DNA of 64,000 nucleotides from Candidatus Saccharimonadota bacterium (GCA_016191105.1 JACPPH010000008.1:136951-200950); one strand, 5' to 3'; numbered from the stretch's first letter, positions 16,066-47,487 are shown. Notes: generated from the letters alone by a model not told the origin. Numbers and translations are program-made.

Positions 16066-16142
16066 CGGGGTGTGGCGCAGTTGGCTAGCGCGCCGCGTTT
16101 GGGACGCGGAGGTCGAAGGTTCGAGTCCTTTCACCCCGACCA
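16066..16142 (+). tRNA. tRNA-Pro (anticodon TGG), C1:G72, CCA encoded
   Basis: CGGGGTG-TG-GCGC AGTTGGCTA GCGC-G-CCGCG TTTGGGA CGCGG-AGGTC-GAAGG TTCGAGT CCTTT-CACCCCG-A-CCA. Confidence 0.8.
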
Positions 16143-17929
16143 GAAGATATTTTTGGTAAATCCGCCAGTAAATTATATGGCGGATTTAGTGTTATTTCAG
16201 ATATAGAGTCGTTTGCGGCTCGTAGGTTCGACACTAGCTCGTTGCAAATAGTATCTTGTTCCACTAAATCGTTTGTGTTGAGCAATGTTTTCAGATAAGA
16301 ATCAATGAGTTCGTAGAAATCTTGCTCGCTTGGTAAGCTAGTGCCTAGTCGCTCCAATTCTTGCTCACTAGTTTTTTTGTTGTGTTTAGCTATATCTACC
16401 AGTTTTTGGTAGTGTTCTAATTTGCCATTGTGATGTTTTTTATAATCTTCTGGGTGGTCAACCTGAAACTGTTGGTAACGCATATAATGCTGTGTATTCG
16501 TTCTAACGTCTTTTTTCGCATTACTTAACTTGCGTTTAGCAATAGCTATCTCCTGTGCATGCTTGCTTTTTAGACGTTCAATGTACAGCTGATATGCTTC
16601 TTTACTATTCTTCGTTAGATGTCGTAAAGTCCACTCAATAGCTGACGAAACATATTTGGCTCTAATACTCTTTTTGAGTTTGATACCTTTCTCTCGGTTT
16701 TCTTCTGCTTTATAACGTTGGCAGTTAGTATTCCTGCAATAAAAACTAATAACCCATCTCCCCTTATTTTTGCCCTTTTTAATAGGCTGATGTTGGAATT
16801 GCATTGGAAGATCGCAGTAATCACAAATAACCTTGCCCCTTAGTAGGCCATAACCTAGCTTTTTGGCGTTTACAGAGTTGCCCACGTGTTTTTCACCGTA
16901 ACTAGCTGCCGTACCCTTGTTAAGGGCAATATACTCGTCAGGCGTCATTAAAGGCAAGAAGTCATAAGTTTCTGCTAAATTGGTCAGGTTGTTACCATAT
17001 CTATATAGCCCAAAATAGAATGGGTCTTCAAATAAATCGCCCACCATTTGTTTATCCACTCGCACTACCTTATAAGGCTCGTCTTGATCTTTACGTTCGC
17101 TAAAGTAGGCAGAGTTTAAGAATTCGGCAACCTCTATATTGCTTTTACCCTCCTGTAATCGCATGATTACACTTTGTCTCAATAAATCCCAGTTATATCC
17201 ATCTGGAATAAAGTATCCTGTACTAGCATCAACATAATAGCCTTTTTTTGTTACGCCGTTATATTTACCTTCTTTAATATTGCCACTAGTACCACGCTTA
17301 ACATCCACAGACAACTTATCAGAATACTGTTTCGAAGTGGCAAATAGTATTCCTAGCATCATTTTGCCATTTGGATTGTTCTCAAATTGGTACGTTCTGA
17401 ACTGTAAATCCTGAATCTGCTCATGGTCTATCATTTCAATGACTTCGCCCGCTTCTTTCATATTCCTTGATATTCTGTCGGGCGACCACGAAATTAGACC
17501 ATGATACTTGCCAGTCTTAAATCCCATAATCATGTCGTCAAATATAGGCCGATTGCCTGAGATCTTGGCAGAAGCTGACTCTTCAAGTATATCTTCTTCT
17601 CGTATTGTAATACCTTGTGCTTCCGCTAGTTCAAGACACTCAGACCGTTGATCTTCTAATGATCTAACTTGTTTTGATTCGTCATCAGTTGATTTACGTA
17701 GATATAGTACATAACACCGCCTTTCTTTTGGGAGTATTCGTTTACTTCCTTCTTGCTCACGAGCAAAATACTCTGTTAACTGCTCAACTGTATGGCTACT
17801 CGCAGGTAAATTAAATACGTCAGGATTACCTTCCTTTTGCTTGGCAAGCCTTTTTTCAATTTCAACTACCTTGTCGCTCGGTAGGTATGCAATCTTGCGT
17901 CTTCGTGCTGGTTTTTTCTGATTAGCCAT
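16085..17929 (-). CDS. large serine recombinase (resolvase/invertase catalytic domain + recombinase domain + zinc ribbon)
   Basis: N-terminal YVLYLRKSTDDESKQVRSLEDQ...ISWSPDRISRN (catalytic Ser/Arg motifs), central recombinase domain, Cys-rich CDYCD...CRNTNC zinc ribbon. The last 19 codons read through the tRNA-Pro(TGG) 3' half on the opposite strand. Confidence 0.85.
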   Translation of the reverse strand: MANQKKPARRRKIAYLPSDKVVEIEKRLAKQKEGNPDVFNLPASSHTVEQLTEYFAREQEGSKRILPKERRCYVLYLRKSTDDESKQVRSLEDQRSECLELAEAQGITIREEDILEESASAKISGNRPIFDDMIMGFKTGKYHGLISWSPDRISRNMKEAGEVIEMIDHEQIQDLQFRTYQFENNPNGKMMLGILFATSKQYSDKLSVDVKRGTSGNIKEGKYNGVTKKGYYVDASTGYFIPDGYNWDLLRQSVIMRLQEGKSNIEVAEFLNSAYFSERKDQDEPYKVVRVDKQMVGDLFEDPFYFGLYRYGNNLTNLAETYDFLPLMTPDEYIALNKGTAASYGEKHVGNSVNAKKLGYGLLRGKVICDYCDLPMQFQHQPIKKGKNKGRWVISFYCRNTNCQRYKAEENREKGIKLKKSIRAKYVSSAIEWTLRHLTKNSKEAYQLYIERLKSKHAQEIAIAKRKLSNAKKDVRTNTQHYMRYQQFQVDHPEDYKKHHNGKLEHYQKLVDIAKHNKKTSEQELERLGTSLPSEQDFYELIDSYLKTLLNTNDLVEQDTICNELVSNLRAANDSISEITLNPPYNLLADLPKISSGRGERTRTFDLRVPNAAR

Positions 17930-18035
17930 TCACACCTCAATAATAGTTATTTTCTCACTAGATTACGAACCTATCAAATCCTAAGTGTGACTTATAGTCC
18001 GTAGACCCATAGTCTACTGCTAATCAAGATAGGGT

Positions 18036-18254
18036 ATGACAAAAACATACCCAGAGGTAGCCGCTCAGTTTGGTCAAAGGCTTAGAAAAATTCGTGAATC
18101 AAAGGGCATCTCACAAGAGAAATTAGCCAATGAATCTGGGCTTGATCGCACATATGTCTCTGGAATTGAAAGAGGCAGACGCAATCCGTCACTTATCAAT
18201 ATCTCAAAACTGGCTAAAGGTTTAAACGTAAAGATCACGGATCTATTTAATTAG
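18036..18254 (+). CDS. XRE-family helix-turn-helix transcriptional regulator
   Basis: LRKIRESKGISQEKLANESGLDRTYVSGIERGRRNPSL canonical HTH_3. Divergent from the recombinase. Confidence 0.8.
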   Translation: MTKTYPEVAAQFGQRLRKIRESKGISQEKLANESGLDRTYVSGIERGRRNPSLINISKLAKGLNVKITDLFN

Positions 18255-18426
18255 TGTATGCTTTTTATTGTGTGAGAAAACTACCCTCTGTGTATCATTT
18301 TATAGCGTCAATTAATTCTTCTAACCTGGCCTAATTTGAAGCTATTGAATCTTTTGTTTAGATATTGCATTATATTTAAGTGTGACTTATAATCTACGCA
18401 AGTTAAAAATTAAATCAGGAGTTACT

Positions 18427-18978
18427 ATGGCAACTAAGAAATCTAACAAGACAGCTATTATCGTTGTAATTGCGATCATTGTAGCGTTATTGGTAGTAGG
18501 TGGAGGAGCATACTATTTCATTTGGGGCAACAAGACCCAAGTTACAACAAATAACGGTACAGCAAGTGTAGAGAGTAACACAAATAAGAAACAACTTAAT
18601 GTAGAGCAAATACTTGCAAACGTAAAAGCAAAATATCCTACCGTAACAGAAGTAAAAATATACAGTGAACAAAATGACCCAAACAATCAGCTAGGTAAGC
18701 CAGGGTATTACATAGCGGGAGGTGCTTTTGCAGATTCACGAGCAGGCGGAATCTCAGATAGCAATTGGGGTGCAGAAGCGGGTGGAAGTATAGAAATATA
18801 TCAGACAGAAGCAGATGCAGCAAAGAGAACAGAATATCTAAAGCAGTTTCAAGGCAATGCTTTGCTAGACCCAGGGGCTTATAAGCAGATTGGTGTAGTG
18901 ATTGTAAGAGCATCTAGCAAATTAACTGCTTCACAGCAGGCTGAGATTGTAGATTATCTTGCCAGCCAAGTGCAGTAA
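18427..18978 (+). CDS. membrane-anchored secreted protein of unknown function (island cargo)
   Basis: RBS AGGAG upstream of the ATG at 18427, N-terminal TM/signal peptide, Asn/Gly-rich mature part. Confidence 0.45.
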   Translation: MATKKSNKTAIIVVIAIIVALLVVGGGAYYFIWGNKTQVTTNNGTASVESNTNKKQLNVEQILANVKAKYPTVTEVKIYSEQNDPNNQLGKPGYYIAGGAFADSRAGGISDSNWGAEAGGSIEIYQTEADAAKRTEYLKQFQGNALLDPGAYKQIGVVIVRASSKLTASQQAEIVDYLASQVQ

Positions 18979-19016
18979 TGGTTCAATAGACCAAGATATT
19001 TAATTAGGAAAAACAA

Positions 19017-19655
19017 TTGGGATTTAAGGATCTAACGTCAAAGGCAAAAGCGAAGTGGGACGCTTACAACGAAGCTGCTAAGCAAAGAGCGGAAGAAGCA
19101 AGGAAAGAGCATGAAGCACAAGTAAAAGCAGAGAACGAACGCCGTGAAGCGGTTTTGTCTGGGAAACTTACACCCATTTCATTTCAAGGCTTAAGTTTAG
19201 ATGATGGTGAGACAGCTTATTATGGTGTTGGCGTAATAAGGTTTGCTGACAGAGAGTATGTTACTGAAGTCACAACTGGCAAAAGTAAGAAGAAACATGT
19301 CGTTAGTAGAGGTTTAGTTGGTGGTGTGCTTTTAGGCCCTGTTGGGCTGGTCGCAGGTGCGGCCACAGCAGGCAGTAAACACAACTCCAAAACCACCCAA
19401 CAAACCGATATACGCACCGAAGAAATAGACAGAGGGTCATTTTACTTAACAAATAAGAGACTATTGTTTGTAGGGTCAGAGATATTGTCACTCCCATACT
19501 CTAATATCTTAGCTTTTAGCGTAGAAAGTAATAAGTTGTATTTGAAGTACCCTGAAATGCAGCGAAATGAGTACTTTCAAGTTACAGATAACAACAACGA
19601 GCTTGATTTATACTATCAAGGTGTACAAAAATCGCTCGATAGTAGCAACAAATAG
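19017..19655 (+). CDS. hypothetical protein with PH-like (bPH/GRAM-like) C-terminal domain (island cargo)
   Basis: TTG start in the ORF track. Coiled-coil N-terminus and a YYGVGVIRF...GSFYLTNKRLLFVGSEILSLPYSNILAF pattern like bacterial PH domains. Confidence 0.4.
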   Translation: MGFKDLTSKAKAKWDAYNEAAKQRAEEARKEHEAQVKAENERREAVLSGKLTPISFQGLSLDDGETAYYGVGVIRFADREYVTEVTTGKSKKKHVVSRGLVGGVLLGPVGLVAGAATAGSKHNSKTTQQTDIRTEEIDRGSFYLTNKRLLFVGSEILSLPYSNILAFSVESNKLYLKYPEMQRNEYFQVTDNNNELDLYYQGVQKSLDSSNK

Positions 19656-19682
19656 TATAACTGGTCAATTACTGGTAAACAT

Positions 19683-20072
19683 TTAGGCAGCCCAGCTGTG
19701 GCCAAGGCTGTCTAGCTTCAAGTTATCACTTGTAAACATTATGGGTTCTTCTTCTTTGGCTAGACTATCAGATAGCTTAATAGCTAACTCTATCAATTTG
19801 CTAGTTGATACTTCTGATAAGTCTCTGTTACCTAATTCATCTCTAATAGCTGTCAATTGAGTCCCTAAAACCATCACTCTATGTCTTTTTGTAGCAAGGT
19901 ACTGATCACGTAGCGATTCTAGTTCAATCGCTTTATAATTTGCTAATTCACTTTCTAGTTCATCGCTCCATTTGATTAGGGTGGGTTTGCTTACTCCAAT
20001 AGATTCAGCAATACTGTTGTAGCTATTGCCTTTGGCTCTTAGCTCAATAAACTGCTGTTTCTTCTCATTCAT
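19683..20072 (-). CDS. HTH-domain protein (resolvase/terminase-small-subunit-like HTH; possible recombination directionality or regulatory factor)
   Basis: FIELRAKGNSYNSIAESIGVSKPTLIKWSDELE HTH motif, then a coiled coil. Confidence 0.45.
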   Translation of the reverse strand: MNEKKQQFIELRAKGNSYNSIAESIGVSKPTLIKWSDELESELANYKAIELESLRDQYLATKRHRVMVLGTQLTAIRDELGNRDLSEVSTSKLIELAIKLSDSLAKEEEPIMFTSDNLKLDSLGHSWAA

Positions 20073-20092
20073 AGGTTCTACAAACTTCTGGC

Positions 20093-20446
20093 TTAGAGAA
20101 AATTATTACCAGCCTGAGCATTGTGGCGTTCCACAGCCTGTCTATTTTTTTCTTCCTCTTCTTTAGTCCAGTAGTTTATCTTAAGACCAAATACAACACG
20201 ACTTACGGTGGCATTCTTGTTTTCTTTGCTTATATCGCCACCGCCTTCAATGAATTCCAGCACTTTAATACCAGCTTTGCCTGATTTTTTGTCTGAATGT
20301 TCTGCTGATACTGCTATATCAAACTCAATAGTGCGTGCATTGTCTTTCTCAGAAAACTGAATATCTCTTGATGTCTCTGTTCTAGCTTCATCAACAGCAG
20401 CATTGATCTGAGTTAAAACATCTTTCACAAAATCTTTTAAATTCAT
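20093..20446 (-). CDS. hypothetical protein (island cargo)
   Basis: 117-aa ORF. Its ATG overlaps the stop of an upstream 58-aa ORF (ATGA), suggesting translational coupling. Confidence 0.4.
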   Translation of the reverse strand: MNLKDFVKDVLTQINAAVDEARTETSRDIQFSEKDNARTIEFDIAVSAEHSDKKSGKAGIKVLEFIEGGGDISKENKNATVSRVVFGLKINYWTKEEEEKNRQAVERHNAQAGNNFL

Positions 20447-20619
20447 TGCTCTGTATCCTGTTTATTCTGTACAGATTGGCTTATATCAGGTGTTTGTGGC
20501 TTAAATTCTTCAATATGAACTCTACCATCTGGTGCAATAAATGGCCTATCTTCCCAATTAGTCGTGTCTGAGGGCGACGCTTGAGGTGGCAGTGGTTGTT
20601 CTTGAGGTTTATCTTCCAT
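20443..20619 (-). CDS. small hypothetical protein (58 aa), translationally coupled to the downstream gene
   Basis: ORF MEDKPQEQPLPPQASPSDTTNWEDRPFIAPDGRVHIEEFKPQTPDISQSVQNKQDTEQ, below the ORF-track size cutoff. Stop TGA overlaps the next ATG. Confidence 0.25.
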   Translation of the reverse strand: MEDKPQEQPLPPQASPSDTTNWEDRPFIAPDGRVHIEEFKPQTPDISQSVQNKQDTEQ

Positions 20620-20803
20620 AATTACATTATAGCAAGAATGTAGTTTCTAAGGCTCTACTAGGCTTTACCAGGTTATCAAGCTGTTGTTTTAGATGTTCTA
20701 ATTGATTATTGAGTAACCTATAATTGAGTAGAAGGGTATACAGGGCATCTAAGTTAGGTTCGATTTGAGTATGCATACCCCGACCACGTCATAATACCGC
20801 TTC

Positions 20804-20843
20804 AACACAAAAAGTGATTTCAACTGAAATCACTTTTGTTGTT
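20804..20843. repeat. perfect ~16-bp-stem inverted repeat (acaaaaagtgatttca / tgaaatcacttttgt)
   Basis: Seen directly; in the island's intergenic region. Confidence 0.6.
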
Positions 20844-20857
20844 TGTGCAGCATTTTT

Positions 20858-20896
20858 ACTCTTCAATTGAAAACAGTATAGTTTTCAATTGAAGAG
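20858..20896. repeat. perfect ~16-bp-stem inverted repeat (ctcttcaattgaaaac / gttttcaattgaagag)
   Basis: Seen directly; 15 nt from the previous IR. Confidence 0.6.
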
Positions 20897-20917
20897 CAGC
20901 AGTGATAAAATTAGATT

Positions 20918-21139
20918 ATGGATCTGAACTTATTTGTACAGCAAAATCTGTGGTGGCTGTTGCTTCTAACCGCCTGGAGTTTGGGCTGGAAAGGTTGGGC
21001 TCTTTGGCGGGCAGCCAAACTGGATCAAAAAGCTTGGTTTGTGGTTTTTATGATTGTTAACACCCTTGGAATTTTAGAAGTTTTTTATGTCTTCTATTTT
21101 TCCAAGCAAAAAACCGCTACAAAAACTGCCTCTAAATAA
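20918..21139 (+). CDS. small two-TM membrane protein (island cargo)
   Basis: 73 aa with two hydrophobic helices (LWWLLLLTAWSLGW / FVVFMIVNTLGILEVFYVFYF). Confidence 0.4.
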   Translation: MDLNLFVQQNLWWLLLLTAWSLGWKGWALWRAAKLDQKAWFVVFMIVNTLGILEVFYVFYFSKQKTATKTASK

Positions 21140-21413
21140 TGCGGTCGTTAGATCAGATTAGAGCCGATATAGACGTTGTCGATAAAGCACTCATCAATGA
21201 TTTGAAGCGGCGTTTTGAACTAACTCATGAGACCGGCGTATACAAGAAGACTCATAACTTACCAAGCCTAGATAATACCAGGTATCAAAAATGTTAGTGG
21301 CCAGAAATGAAGCAGCCAAGGCCGCTGGGCTACCCGAGGACTTAGCTATAGAAGTCTTTGGTCTAATTCACAAATATTCTGTACTAGAACAAGATAAGCT
21401 AAAATAGCCATTG

Positions 21414-21490
21414 CGGGGTGTGGCGCAGCCTGGTAGCGCGCAGCGTTCGGGACGCTGAGGTCGCCGGTTCAAGTCCGGCCACCCCGACCA
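21414..21490 (+). tRNA. tRNA-Pro (anticodon CGG), C1:G72, CCA encoded
   Basis: CGGGGTG-TG-GCGC AGCCTGGTA GCGC-G-CAGCG TTCGGGA CGCTG-AGGTC-GCCGG TTCAAGT CCGGC-CACCCCG-A-CCA. Confidence 0.85.
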
Positions 21491-37880: not shown

Positions 37881-37932
37881 TGGTGACCCCAGGGGGAGTC
37901 GAACCCCCGTTGTCAGGATTAAAACCTGGTAC
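37881..37932 (-). pseudogene. 3'-half fragment copy of tRNA-Glu (anticodon loop mutated to UUUUAAU); tandem partial duplication
   Basis: Near-identical to 38046-38098 (T-arm, acceptor 3' strand, CCA, anticodon arm), but the 5' half cannot form an acceptor/D-arm. Confidence 0.55.
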
Positions 37933-38045
37933 CTTTCGTTATAAGTCAATTAGGGCTTACGCAAAAAGCTTAACGCCTTTTTGCTTCAGTCTCCATTAAC
38001 TTCTTCCTCTTAAATCAAAACACTTTGGTGACCCCAGGGGGAGTC

Positions 38046-38120
38046 GAACCCCCGTTGCCAGGATGAAAACCTGGTGTCCTAACCGCTAGACGATGGGGCC
38101 ACAAAGCAAGTGTTTTGATT
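38046..38120 (-). tRNA. tRNA-Glu (anticodon TTC), CCA encoded
   Basis: GGCCCCA-TC-GTCT AGCGGTTA GGAC-A-CCAGG TTTTCAT CCTGG-CAAC-GGGGG TTCGACT CCCCC-TGGGGTC-A-CCA. Confidence 0.85.
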
Positions 38121-43287: not shown

Positions 43288-43818
43288 ATGAAGGTTATAA
43301 TGCTCAACACGATGTCGGTTAACGGCATGATTTCTCTTGAGGATGGAAGCGAAAACTTTCTGTCTGACGAAGGCGGTGACTATGTTATGCAAAAAGCCAA
43401 GGAATTCGGCTGCATAATTTGGGGTCGCAGGGTCTACGAAAACCTTTAGAGTAATCTTACAGAGTTTAACGAGAGGCAGTCCAAAAAGTTGGCCGAAATT
43501 TATAAGATAGTTGTTTCAAGCGACACAAATTTACAGCTTGAGGAAGGCTATAATTTGACAACAAGTCCGCGGCACGCTCTAGAGTTGCTTAGGGAACAGG
43601 GCACGGAAAGCGCTTTAGTAGACGGCGGCGGTAAGCTCAACGCTTCATTTCTCAGAGAAGGCTTAGTTCATGAAATTCATCTTATCATCGAACCTGTAAT
43701 GATTGGCAAGGGGCTGCCAATTATTGCGCCAGATGCTTTTGAAGTAAGAACCTCCTTAATTTCGGTCGAAGAGATTCATAAAGAAGAAGTTCTGCTAAAA
43801 TATAAGGTAGAGAAATAA
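43288..43818 (+). pseudogene. dihydrofolate-reductase-like (RibD C-terminal domain family) gene interrupted by a single in-frame TAG at 43447-43449
   Basis: N-terminal segment MKVIMLNTMSVNGMISLEDGS...WGRRVYENL, then TAG, then in-frame continuation ...EIYKIVVSSDTNLQ...ALVDGGGKLNASFL...IHLIIEPVMIGKG. Confidence 0.5.
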
Positions 43819-44276: not shown

Positions 44277-44749
44277 AAACCCTAGAAATTATCGGCCTAA
44301 TAGCACTGAGCCTACTGGTTTTACTATTCGTAGCTTTTTTATTGGTGCGAGCCTACTATGGTTGGCGCACTAGCCAGATGCCAGAGCACAGTCAGTTTGC
44401 GAGTGGGACAGCTCCAACCGAGCTGCCAAACGGCAGCTACAAAGGCACAGCCACAGTTTCGCAAGGCAGCTGGCAGGGTAAGAAGTTCGATTCTGCAACG
44501 GCCGCTGGAATTAATGTGTTTGCCGAAGGTGATAAGTACGAGTTTAAGATGTCGAGCGCCAAAGGCTTAACTGACCCCGACAAGCAAGTACTGAAGATCG
44601 ACTATAACCTGCCAAGCAACCCGTGGTGGCTACGCTTGGTGGTAGATGAAGTGGTGCAGACTGGGCCAAATGAACTACTTGGCAAGATCCAAATTAACGC
44701 TATCCCGTCGCTGCCATTTACGGTCGGCTACTTTAAGCTTCAGAAATAA
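44273..44749 (+). CDS. hypothetical membrane-anchored protein
   Basis: N-terminal TM helix, 158 aa. Confidence 0.4.
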   Translation: MKTLEIIGLIALSLLVLLFVAFLLVRAYYGWRTSQMPEHSQFASGTAPTELPNGSYKGTATVSQGSWQGKKFDSATAAGINVFAEGDKYEFKMSSAKGLTDPDKQVLKIDYNLPSNPWWLRLVVDEVVQTGPNELLGKIQINAIPSLPFTVGYFKLQK

Positions 44750-44777
44750 TTTTCGTCTTTTTGTGCTAAAATAATCT

Positions 44778-45262
44778 CAACCCGGCCACAAGCGGTCCCA
44801 CCAGTGGGGCAACTCACAGGTTCGACTGCGGTTCTCGGGTGCCCATTGGGTTAAGTGCCGGTGTGCCTCGGTGCCTGTCCTACACAGGGGCGGGAAAAGC
44901 CGGTAGACTGGCTCGAGCGAGCTCCTGAGCTTGTAGGGCAACAGTGGTAGTGGAACTGCAAAGACAGCCAGGACTAGGGCTTAGAAACAGCCCCGGTTGA
45001 AAGAGTGCGTAACAGCTCACTGGTCGAGTGGTTCTGCGCCACAAAACGCAAGTGGTATGTTTCGGCGATGTCGGCCGCCGCGTGCCGACTTTAAGGGCCT
45101 CTGGCCTATCACATACCCACTCCGACCCTGGCGTTCGCGCTAAGGCGGGGCAAAGGTGGTTTCTCGAGCCGAACTAGAGACTCCACCAACCCCTCGATCG
45201 TATCGAGGTGCCATCCGGAAGGGTGGGCGGGGATTAAAGCATGTCCCCGTCCACTCGCTGGG
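44778..45262 (+). ncRNA. 23S rRNA domain II-like RNA (helices ~41-46 / L10-L11-binding GTPase-associated-centre region) as an isolated ~480-nt non-coding segment
   Basis: Co-linear blocks match conserved 23S sequence, e.g. ACAGCCAGGACTAGGGCTTAGAAACAGCC...AAAGAGTGCGTAACAGCTCACTGGTCGAGTGGTTCTGCGCC vs E. coli ACAGCCAGGATGTTGGCTTAGAAGCAGCC...AAAGAAAGCGTAATAGCTCACTGGTCGAGTCGGCCTGCGCG. Also AACCCGGCCACAAGCGGTCCC, GGTTAAGTG, CTAAGGCGGGGCAAAGG blocks. Extended -10 TGcTAAAAT at 44764-44772 and a terminator-like hairpin/T-run at 45224-45269. No ORFs. Confidence 0.45.
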
Positions 45263-45318
45263 CTTTTTTATTTACGGCAAATGTTCGTATGTGCTAATGC
45301 TTGTAGTAAAATAGACCA

Positions 45319-47487
45319 ATGCAACAGATTCTGGAATCTCTAAATGAATCGCAAAAGCAGGCCGTGCTGGCCACCGAAGGGCCAGTATTAATGCTGGCTG
45401 GTGCTGGCAGTGGTAAAACCAAAACCCTTACGCACCGCATAGCCTACCTGATTGCTGAGCGCAAAATTCCGGCCGCCAACATTTTGGCGGTTACGTTTAC
45501 CAACAAAGCCGCTGGCGAAATGCGCCGACGGGTGGCGCGGATTCTGCACTTTCACGAAGACAATATGAACTATCTGCCCTTCCTTGGCACCTTCCACTCC
45601 ATTGCCAACAAGATTTTGCGGCGCGAGGCGACCCACATTGGCTACCCTAGTAACTTTTTAATCTACGACACCAACGACTCTCAGGCGCTCATTAAGCACC
45701 TTATTAAACAACACCGCATCGACGAAAAAACTATTACTGCTAACGCTGTGGGGCACATGATAAGCAGCGCCAAAAATGAACTGCTCGATCCAAACCAATA
45801 CGCCAACTTTGCCGTCGGTCGCTTGCAAGAGGCCGCGGCCAAAATTTACCCTGATTATCAAAAAGAGTTGCGTAAGGCCCAGGCTATGGACTTTGATGAT
45901 CTTATAATGCAGTTAGTTAAGTTGTTCCAAACTGAGGCCGAGGTGTTAAAAAAATACCAAAGCCAGTTTCAGTACATATTGGTCGATGAGTATCAGGATA
46001 CCAACAACGCTCAGTACACACTCATTCACTTACTGGCGCGTGAGCACAGCAATGTTTGTGTAGTTGGTGACGACTGGCAGAGCATATACAGCTGGCGCGG
46101 TGCCAATTACGAAAACATCCTTAATTTTGAGCGTGATTATCCGACCGCTAAGATTGTAAAACTCGAGCAAAACTATCGCTCTACTCAGACCATACTAGAT
46201 GCTGCCCACGCGGTGATATCTAAAAACACTGCCCGCAGCGAAAAAGAGCTCTGGACCGAAGCCGGCAGTGGAGCTAAGATCCAGCTCGTGAGTGTGCGCG
46301 ATGAGCTCGAAGAGGGCCGGTTTATAGTGCAAACTATTCAGAGCGCTATCGAGCACGACCCACGGCTTAGTCGGCATGACTTTGCGGTGCTGTACCGTAC
46401 TAACGCTCAGTCACGCGCCTTGGAAGAGTCATTTCTGCGCTACAACGTGCCATACCAGATCGTCGGTGGAGTACGGTTTTATGAACGCAAAGAGATCAAA
46501 GATACCTTAGCTTACTTGCGCTTTGTATTTCAGCCCAACGACCAGATTAGTTTACGCCGCGTAATCAACGTGCCTCCGCGCGGCCTGGGCGAGCGCAGCT
46601 TACAAACATTTTTCGATTATACGGCTCGGTTTGAACTTAACTTGCTCGAGGCCATGGCCAACGCCACAGAGATTGAAGGGCTAACACCTAAGGCGGCCAA
46701 AGCTTTCACTGAGTTTGCCGCCACCATCAAAGAGCTTCAGGTAAAACAAGAGACTCTGCCCTTGAGCGTGCTGGTTGAGACAGTATTAAAAACCACTGGC
46801 TACCTTAAGTATCTAGACGACGGCAACATCATCTCGGCCGACCGCATTGAGAACCTCCAAGAGTTTATAGGCGTAGCCAAGAGCTTCGACAATGCTGGCT
46901 TGGAGGCCTTTCTAACAGAAATCACATTAATTTCTGACCTCGATGGCCTCAAAGAAAGCCAAGACGCCGTAACCTTGATGACTCTACATTCGGCTAAAGG
47001 GCTGGAGTTCGACACCGTCTTTATGGCCGGTATGGAGGAGGCTATATTCCCGCACTCTCGAGCCATGTTTGAGGCTGTGGAGCTCGAAGAGGAGCGCCGC
47101 CTATGCTACGTGGGCATGACTCGCGCCAAGAGCAAGCTTTATATGATTCATGCCAATGCTCGTATGTTGTATGGACGCACTCAGCACAACGTGCCCTCGC
47201 GCTTTTTGAGCGACATCCCAGCCGAGCTGGTGGAATCAACCTCACCGACTGGCACCCTTGGCCAGCTGCTACAGCGACAAACACTGTCTGATCCATCGAG
47301 CGGTGACAGCTTCGACGATGAGCCGTTTGTCAATCTGCCTAAGCTTAGCCCGGGTGATGAGGTAGAGCACGATGCCTTTGGCCGCGGCATCGTTAAGAGT
47401 CTCGATGACAGTGAAGTTGTAGTAAGCTTCTACCGAGCCGGCGTAAAAACCCTAAACTTAGGCTTTGCACCATTGAGAAAAGTATGA
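45319..47487 (+). CDS. pcrA: ATP-dependent DNA helicase PcrA/UvrD
   Basis: LNESQKQAV, GAGSGKT (Walker A), VDEYQDTN, and UvrD-C motifs; 722 aa. Confidence 0.9.
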   Translation: MQQILESLNESQKQAVLATEGPVLMLAGAGSGKTKTLTHRIAYLIAERKIPAANILAVTFTNKAAGEMRRRVARILHFHEDNMNYLPFLGTFHSIANKILRREATHIGYPSNFLIYDTNDSQALIKHLIKQHRIDEKTITANAVGHMISSAKNELLDPNQYANFAVGRLQEAAAKIYPDYQKELRKAQAMDFDDLIMQLVKLFQTEAEVLKKYQSQFQYILVDEYQDTNNAQYTLIHLLAREHSNVCVVGDDWQSIYSWRGANYENILNFERDYPTAKIVKLEQNYRSTQTILDAAHAVISKNTARSEKELWTEAGSGAKIQLVSVRDELEEGRFIVQTIQSAIEHDPRLSRHDFAVLYRTNAQSRALEESFLRYNVPYQIVGGVRFYERKEIKDTLAYLRFVFQPNDQISLRRVINVPPRGLGERSLQTFFDYTARFELNLLEAMANATEIEGLTPKAAKAFTEFAATIKELQVKQETLPLSVLVETVLKTTGYLKYLDDGNIISADRIENLQEFIGVAKSFDNAGLEAFLTEITLISDLDGLKESQDAVTLMTLHSAKGLEFDTVFMAGMEEAIFPHSRAMFEAVELEEERRLCYVGMTRAKSKLYMIHANARMLYGRTQHNVPSRFLSDIPAELVESTSPTGTLGQLLQRQTLSDPSSGDSFDDEPFVNLPKLSPGDEVEHDAFGRGIVKSLDDSEVVVSFYRAGVKTLNLGFAPLRKV

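Follow-up and report, generated by a model that had tools for sequence, protein, structure and literature searches.

We analyzed a 64,000-nucleotide (nt) stretch of DNA from Candidatus Saccharimonadota bacterium (GCA_016191105.1 JACPPH010000008.1:136951-200950), one strand, hereafter the window. The subject is a segment of ~485 nt upstream of pcrA that contains a copy of one arm of 23S ribosomal RNA (rRNA). From 5' to 3', the genes before it encode pyruvate kinase, TIM, inorganic pyrophosphatase, a RibD_C fragment, a PNPOx-like protein, and a 158-amino-acid (aa) hypothetical protein. The segment comes next, followed by the genes for PcrA, a NUDIX protein, an Rpf-like protein, and KsgA. The neighborhood of the segment consists of ordinary housekeeping genes, and its downstream neighbor is pcrA (UvrD-helicase), not rplJ. 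For both PcrA and the 158-aa protein, NCBI contains a Candidatus Saccharibacteria protein with 100% identity. Eight tRNAs are found in the window by Rfam cmscan and ARAGORN. Apart from the arm look-alike, cmscan finds no rRNA gene in the window, and none is present in the sequence that extends the window upstream. An earlier description of this DNA, made by a model and referred to here as the sequence-only reading, had placed an isolated look-alike of 23S rRNA between protein genes and outside any rRNA operon. On this point it was right.

The rRNA-like part of the segment is sharply delimited. The Rfam model of bacterial large subunit (LSU) rRNA (LSU_rRNA_bacteria, RF02541) aligns, with its positions 1071-1170, to window positions 44946-45045 on the plus strand (82.4 bits, E 1.2e-22). 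These positions make up the complete arm of helices 42 to 44 (H42-H44), which comprises kink-turn 42 and the GTPase-associated center (GAC) and spans E. coli positions ~1030-1129 (reference arm for comparison, PMC1919483). All modelled pairs of the arm are canonical, with zero non-canonical pairs flagged by cmscan. In addition, an nhmmer --max search (filters off, E<=100) with a profile of 23S domain II covering ±500 nt around the arm returns a single match at 44947-45040 (82.7 bits, E 6.7e-28). The arm is 83-89% identical by blastn to 120 real 23S loci taken from GTDB genomes, across 90-96 nt. Its identity to enterobacterial 23S is 78-80%, in agreement with the ~80% proposed earlier for a 77-nt core. 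When the segment is folded without constraint, H42, H43, and H44 are recovered within a larger minimum-free-energy (MFE) structure. Judged by its sequence, the arm is a genuine copy of 23S H42-H44.

The rRNA-like share of the segment is only ~100 of 485 nt. No second LSU block is detected by cmscan in 44650-45400 at E<=10, and blastn of the 168-nt 5' flank and the 217-nt 3' flank against ~1 Mb of rRNA-operon loci gives nothing significant. The full ~2.9-kb LSU model (domains I-VI) is not matched contiguously; only positions 1071-1170 are. The sequence-only reading had described ~480 nt of block-wise, co-linear identity to 23S positions 975-1260, with homology starting at 44778. Cmscan, blastn, and nhmmer find only the arm, and homology actually starts at 44946 and ends at ~45042. 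The LSU covariance model, a check proposed by the sequence-only reading, aligns to 44946-45045 and to nothing in the flanks. One other resemblance was considered and set aside. The stretch GCGGTCCCACCAGTGGGGCAACTCAC (44792-44817) in a 5' hairpin, first seen when the 5' flank was matched to sequence upstream of Acidimicrobiia rRNA operons, is 89-92% identical over 25-28 nt to the Acidimicrobiia tyrS region encoding GSDQWGN. At E 0.01-0.1 and with no extension, this was judged to be a chance match.

Differences of the arm were scored against 78 distinct real LSU arms and against the positions that the Rfam consensus conserves. No change is seen in the internal loop of the kink-turn (AGACA / GAG), the junction between H42 and H43/44, the H43 loop with A1067, or H44 with A1095. 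The lower part of H43 is rewritten. Positions 1058-1061 read CUAG instead of the GGUU of real 23S, and positions 1077-1080 read CCGG instead of AYCC. In addition, position 1071 (window 44987) is A, where real 23S has G. The arm carries A1060, G1061, C1077, and A1071 at positions where the canonical residue is nearly or fully invariant among the real arms (U1060 and A1077 in 78/78, U1061 in 77/78, G1071 in 74/78). Pairs 1058-1080 and 1059-1079, which vary and covary among real 23S, are still complementary in the arm. Nine of the 61 conserved Rfam positions are mismatched, and six of the nine fall in lower H43, a block picked for the test after inspecting the data (hypergeometric p 2.6e-4). Among the kink-turn, the junction, H44, and the loops, G1071 is the sole conserved position altered. 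The changes are clustered and preserve pairing, which is not the pattern of even neutral decay. Because invariant residues are changed, the arm is not a copy of any working 23S. As a separate observation, A at 1071 also occurs in genuine bacterial and archaeal LSU rRNAs from JGI metagenomes (Ga0137420_1475400 and four further sequences); the first of these contigs carries two inverted 23S-5S copies within 8 kb.

In ribosomes, the internal loop U1060/U1061/A1077 and G1071, which we take to be a member of an H43-H44 base triple, make tertiary contacts between H43 and H44. The C-terminal domain of L11 docks in the minor groove of the '1067 stem' and forms hydrogen bonds with the U1060-A1088 pair (PMC2175356). 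uL10 recognizes the kink-turn, in 23S rRNA and in the rplJ leader alike (PMC10931766). The comparison thus suggests that L11-side invariants, including an L11 contact (U1060), have been selectively rewritten, and the arm looks like an L10-competent, L11-impaired stalk base. The label 'L10/L11-binding' given by the sequence-only reading has to be qualified: kink-turn 42, on the L10 side, is intact, and the docking stem for L11 is rewritten.

The segment as a whole has the appearance of a unit. G+C makes up 60.6% of the segment, with 62-63% in the flanks and 54% in the arm; the window is at 46.1%. On the plus strand, 44770-45275 has a folding energy of -223 kcal/mol (z -4.24, equalled by 0/100 shuffles), in comparison with z -0.55 for the reverse complement. 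The excess is found in each flank on its own: z is -2.90 (+) and +0.96 (-) for the 5' flank, and -4.67 (+; 0/200 shuffles) and -1.79 (-) for the 3' flank. The individual helices are listed in Table 1. A six-pair helix, P1, closes the whole RNA; it opens 9 nt after an extended -10 box and stops one base before TTTTTTATTT.

Table 1 Predicted features of the segment and the adjoining pcrA promoter (window coordinates)
Feature	Position	Strand	Basis
Predicted non-coding RNA (ncRNA), ~485 nt, 60.6% GC	44779..45263	+	Fold, GC, no other Rfam family
Extended -10 box TGcTAAAAT, preceded by a T-run	44764..44772	+	Read from sequence, motif enrichment
P1 5' strand CCCGGC, pairs with 45257-45262	44781..44786	+	MFE and partition function, mean probability 0.66
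Hairpin A, GCAA tetraloop	44792..44829	+	Pair probabilities 0.98-1.00
Hairpin B, lower confidence	44830..44875	+	Pair probabilities 0.36-0.58
Hairpin C, long interrupted stem	44876..44940	+	Pair probabilities ~0.9
23S H42-H44 look-alike arm	44946..45045	+	cmscan, nhmmer, MFE fold
H43	44972-44998	+	A1067 = 44983
Rewritten lower H43 and loop	44974..44996	+	78-arm comparison, Rfam mismatches
H44	45003-45018	+	A1095 = 45011
Domain D, long-range helix GUGGUAUGU / ACAUACCCAC around two hairpins	45051..45121	+	3'-flank fold
Hairpins E, F, G	45122..45212	+	Fold; hairpin F (45155-45187) probability ~1.0
Hairpin H, 14 consecutive G+C-rich pairs	45221..45256	+	Pair probability 0.99
P1 3' strand GCUGGG, then TTTTTTATTT, terminator-like end	45257..45273	+	Terminator scan, P1 pairing
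Native pcrA -10 region TTGTAGTAAAATA	45301..45313	+	Imperfect repeat of TTGTGCTAAAATA

The extended -10 box that had been noted before is present, and transcription is predicted to start at ~44779-44780, 7 nt past it. The motif TGNTAWAAT occurs 19 times in the window against 7.9 expected, a count reached in 0/100 shuffles. Copies stand directly upstream of a tRNA-Arg gene, a histidine-kinase gene, and others, and TGNTAWAAT is the window's own promoter type. A -35/-10 consensus scan finds no canonical two-hexamer promoter. At the other end, the hairpin and T-run reported before pcrA were recovered at 45249-45269 (45249-45263 plus T-run in the terminator scan).

The segment does not appear to encode a protein, as the sequence-only reading had stated. 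Its longest open reading frames (ORFs) are 48-54 aa, and none of the segment ORFs has a significant Pfam match at E<=10, a WH2 match being at chance level (E 0.01, 15.9 bits, cut-off 23.1). Concatenated six-frame stop-free peptides of both flanks have no match at E<=10 among 5.8 billion proteins. With both comparisons empty, a degraded protein-coding gene was rejected. Apart from the LSU arm, the segment matches no Rfam family. RNase P, transfer-messenger RNA (tmRNA), SRP, 6S, OLE, GOLLD, ROOL, raiA, HEARO, and similar RNAs were rejected, as they match neither in the window at the gathering threshold nor in 44650-45400 at E<=10, and ARAGORN reports no tmRNA. On these predictions, 44779-45263 looks like a single RNA gene on the plus strand. 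Its transcription, the binding of proteins, and any physiological role are what we infer from them.

Contigs assembled by Logan from run SRR12113392 bear on the integrity of the locus. Both break in the H44 core, L135 ending at 45026 and L001 starting at 45001. The 26-nt core 45001-45026 is sequence common to real 23S, and the contig of the metagenome-assembled genome (MAG) at NCBI spans it. The position of the breaks implies that k-mers shared with rRNA split the short-read assembly graph. The breaks count in favor of an assembly chimera. However, L135 and L001, which probably come from the same reads as the MAG, each hold one non-rRNA flank that runs into its own half of the arm, independently of the other. 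In addition, the two H42 strands are complementary to each other, and the gene order on either side is as in relatives. Therefore, a chimera is unlikely. A trivial copy of a working 23S, which the sequence-only reading had also named as a possible undoing, is unlikely as well, since invariant positions differ from the 78 real arms, the flanks are not rRNA, and two separate Logan contigs each join a non-rRNA flank to the arm.

The location directly upstream of pcrA raises the possibility of a 5' leader of pcrA. Against this, the RNA is set apart from pcrA by a terminator-like end and by the conserved promoter of pcrA. The pcrA -10 box (TAGTAAAAT or TAGTACAAT) stops 7-8 nt ahead of the ATG in the window (45289-45321) and in three relatives, which suggests, from its spacing, that the pcrA mRNA is leaderless or near-leaderless. 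Taken jointly, an assembly chimera and a pcrA leader are very improbable. The related proposal of the sequence-only reading, a cis-leader displaced from a ribosomal-protein operon, is not borne out either. The L10_leader family (RF00557) has no match in 44650-45400 at E<=10, and the terminator separates the RNA from pcrA.

How the segment came to its place can be read from relatives with 65-69% PcrA identity, which keep the order pyruvate kinase, TIM, inorganic pyrophosphatase, variable genes, PcrA, Rpf, KsgA. Their pcrA upstream spacers are 50-120 nt and hold nothing similar to the segment. In the window, an imperfect 13-nt direct repeat brackets the segment: TTGTGCTAAAATA at 44761-44773 and TTGTAGTAAAATA at 45301-45313, 540 nt from start to start. 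In the relatives, GTAGTACAATA precedes the ATG of pcrA by 7-8 nt; the downstream copy is thus the conserved pcrA -10 region. When one repeat and the intervening DNA are deleted, a relative-like spacer is restored. We infer from this arrangement that the RNA gene came as a ~540-bp insertion into the pcrA promoter, probably duplicating the -10 box that would now drive the RNA.

The same arrangement is what the strongest rival explanation builds on. The segment could be an inert relic, ~540 bp of foreign or rearranged DNA that contains a 100-nt 23S fragment and landed in the pcrA promoter, its apparent promoter being the duplicated pcrA -10 box. The copies of the pcrA -10 region, which stand in direct orientation at either end, fit this, and the high GC fits a recent foreign origin. 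Several further observations lean the same way and weigh against a functional RNA. The conservation and synteny looked for on the advice of the sequence-only reading were not found, the segment being absent upstream of pcrA in all six syntenic relatives examined. Homologues of the upstream 158-aa gene (60-68% identity) have no RNA beside them and are followed directly by protein genes; an association of the RNA with this protein was rejected for that reason. Beyond the relatives, the pattern of the arm with A1071 has five matches in JGI metagenomes, all true LSU rRNAs. The arm pattern has at least 120 matches in GTDB genomes, and among the matches listed all lie inside real 23S genes. Phage and plasmid records yield only real 23S genes by blastn (the Paenibacillus plasmid and 'phage' matches carry full-length 23S), and viral contigs yield only two real 23S fragments by arm pattern. 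With the protein comparison above, the searches give no homologue, although they were partly exact-pattern and do not prove absence elsewhere. A single occurrence means that the flank helices have no support from covariation.

The neighboring RibD_C-family ORF (window 43288-43818, 109 aa) also counts on this side. Its alignment covers only the last third of the domain, at the C-terminal end (profile 117-193 of 197), and directly upstream of it stands a separate ORF of 53 aa. The RibD_C-family ORF is probably a pseudogene, truncated or frameshifted, that shares its variable slot with the RNA; the slot therefore tolerates decaying DNA. Finally, residues essential in real ribosomes are mutated, and the changes of U1060 and G1071 are compatible equally with relaxed constraint.

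Other features are hard to reconcile with an inert fragment. The boundaries of the arm fall at the base of H42 rather than at an arbitrary break, and its mismatches are clustered and pair-preserving, not evenly spread. Both unrelated flanks show strand-specific excess folding, and the terminal helix brings the two ends together, fitting exactly into the interval from the promoter box to the T-run. Moreover, no working donor 23S would have A1060, G1061, and C1077; the arm has therefore evolved since leaving 23S, or came from an existing RNA gene. On balance we regard an inert relic as unlikely, though a serious contender.

The search of viral contigs brought up two further elements, which are described here in their own right. 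Contig IMGVR_UViG_2721755776_000002 contains at 1755-1822 an isolated GAC core of ~68 nt in AT-rich surroundings, with no rRNA around it. This core consists of the top of H42, H43, and H44, shows covariation from CCAG/CUGG to CUAG/CUAG, and has a 1-nt insertion; a GAC pattern with such an insertion is also found in one other viral contig. About 30 nt further on come GAGGTG and the start codon, ATG, of a hydrophobic ORF of 56 aa (1852-2022). In the MFE fold (z -4.0), the H44 sequence pairs with the Shine-Dalgarno and start region. The element is a second stand-alone GAC look-alike and may be a GAC-mimicking cis-regulator. At the end of contig IMGVR_UViG_3300029275_000010, a 23S fragment with H42-H44 passes, after the conserved AACGGGCC, into AT-rich non-rRNA sequence. 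The junction may mark an intron or an intervening sequence close to H45; alternatively, the viral contig may be a chimera.

Among known systems, the closest in manner of working would be the L10 (rplJ) leader (RF00557), which is likewise an extra-ribosomal RNA that copies the uL10 site around the kink-turn (PMC10931766). The segment differs from it in form. The rplJ leaders, E. coli rplJ among them, are short elements that act in cis from a place immediately 5' of rplJ and resemble rRNA in sequence only to a limited degree, whereas the segment contains a near-full 100-nt copy of H42-H44 (82 bits) in a 485-nt terminated unit upstream of pcrA. Iben and Draper are said to have found in 2008 that the rplJ leader does not reproduce the L11 site. 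In the arm of the segment, the kink-turn is kept and the L11-site invariants are lost. By analogy, the rRNA mimics that the segment would resemble most in its working are the rplJ/L10 leaders, yet it is not a member of this class.

A second parallel is found in Plasmodium mitochondria, where LSUB and LSUC carry H43/H44 sequences as genes of their own, apart from the other LSU rRNA (PMC3382252). The arm of the segment likewise stands apart. These pieces are 23-30 nt long, retain the consensus residues, and fill a region missing from the remaining rRNA; the arm sits in a large unrelated scaffold and has invariant residues altered. The parallel nevertheless invites the idea that the resident 23S lacks H42-H44 and that the RNA provides the stalk base in trans. 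The arm is a complete structural module, and the separate tiny RNAs that encode the GAC in Plasmodium are thought to be held by protein (PMC3382252). However, the arm differs at residues that 78 real arms share, and it is joined to ~385 nt of structured RNA of an unrelated kind. The locus also looks like a recent insertion, and syntenic relatives, whose ribosomes are presumably normal, lack the gene. A trans-supplied ribosomal piece is therefore extremely improbable.

Bacterial Y RNA (PMC4201824) and tmRNA share with the segment the principle that a domain of a translation RNA is grafted into a bigger scaffold to recruit partners. Their module is tRNA-like and their families are widespread and conserved; the module of the segment is an rRNA arm, the segment is a singleton, and it has no Rfam match to either. 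Orphan rRNA fragments and pseudogenes are also stand-alone 23S pieces outside an operon. The segment departs from them in its exact end at the base of a helix, its clustered, pair-preserving changes, and its strand-specific structured unit with promoter and terminator.

The sequence-only reading had also considered a decoy. In this explanation, the RNA would soak up molecules that target the GAC, such as thiopeptides or a GAC-binding factor or toxin, through the A1067 and A1095 loops. Actinobacteria produce thiopeptides and are the usual hosts and neighbors of Saccharibacteria. Both loops are intact save for G1071A, and the unit is predicted to be independently transcribed and looks stable. 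In addition, thiostrepton binding rests on the conformation of the GAC RNA together with L11 (PMC2175356). On the other side, high-affinity binding of thiopeptides requires the compact H43-H44 fold and L11 (PMC2175356). Judging from the established structure of the GAC, the changes of U1060 and G1071 probably weaken both the compact fold and L11 binding. Moreover, no resistance-type genes were found adjoining the segment, and the literature searched describes neither a GAC-mimicking ncRNA nor an rRNA-fragment decoy, so that a natural RNA decoy of this kind has no precedent there. A decoy is a variant of the idea of an off-ribosome mimic, weakened by the lost L11-side and tertiary-contact residues, and we consider it improbable.

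We favor, with a probability of about 0.4, a stand-alone functional RNA in which an exapted stalk-base arm mimics a binding site for proteins, with L10-(L7/L12)n as the most plausible partner. In its favor, the boundaries are modular, parts of the arm are selectively kept and others rewritten, the unrelated flanks are structured on one strand, and promoter, terminal helix, and terminator match one another. According to this proposal, an independently transcribed, stable, structured RNA of ~485 nt would have the H42-H44 arm of 23S built into an unrelated scaffold of about eight hairpins that is closed by a terminal helix. The arm retains the parts recognized by uL10 (kink-turn 42 and the flanking stems) and the factor- and thiopeptide-facing loops (A1067 and A1095), and lacks the U1060/U1061/A1077 internal loop and G1071. 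Off the ribosome, this rRNA mimic may bind L10-(L7/L12)n without L11, as rplJ leaders do in cis. Through such binding, the RNA would serve as a buffer or store for stalk proteins, titrate them, or offer them on a platform of its own.

Two further regions were noted elsewhere in the window. A gene for a 614-aa serine recombinase (16085-17929, minus strand) overlaps the end of a tRNA-Pro(tgg) gene and is followed by ~5 kb of low-GC DNA (38-40%) that reaches tRNA-Pro(cgg) at 21414; window 16066-21490 is probably an integrated element. At 37886-37955 on the minus strand, a weak tRNA match (30 bits) that ARAGORN does not report duplicates, in part, the 3' portion of the adjacent tRNA-Glu (38026-38100) and looks like the remnant of an att site. 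It is followed by a 107-aa secreted-looking ORF at 37802-37480.

To our knowledge, the only known cases of rRNA mimicry are short leaders that act in cis in ribosomal-protein operons. Should the segment prove to be an inert relic, it would be a caution that MAG contigs can contain rRNA-derived segments, which interrupt short-read assembly and can be mistaken for ncRNA genes. If the favored reading of a stand-alone functional RNA is true, whole rRNA domains would be reusable as trans-acting modules, like the tRNA-like domains in tmRNA and Y RNA. The arm would then also be a natural experiment on which GAC residues are needed for binding of L10, L11, factors, and thiopeptides. Tentatively, the segment may be an RNA gene, possibly mobile, whose product would be the first bacterial ncRNA that stands on its own and has a functional center of the ribosome as its core. 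It would present, off the ribosome, a re-engineered stalk-base/GAC arm that preserves the L10 site and the factor loops but no longer has the L11 site. In an episymbiont with a reduced genome, such an RNA might capture L10-L7/L12, translational GTPases, or antibiotics directed at the GAC.
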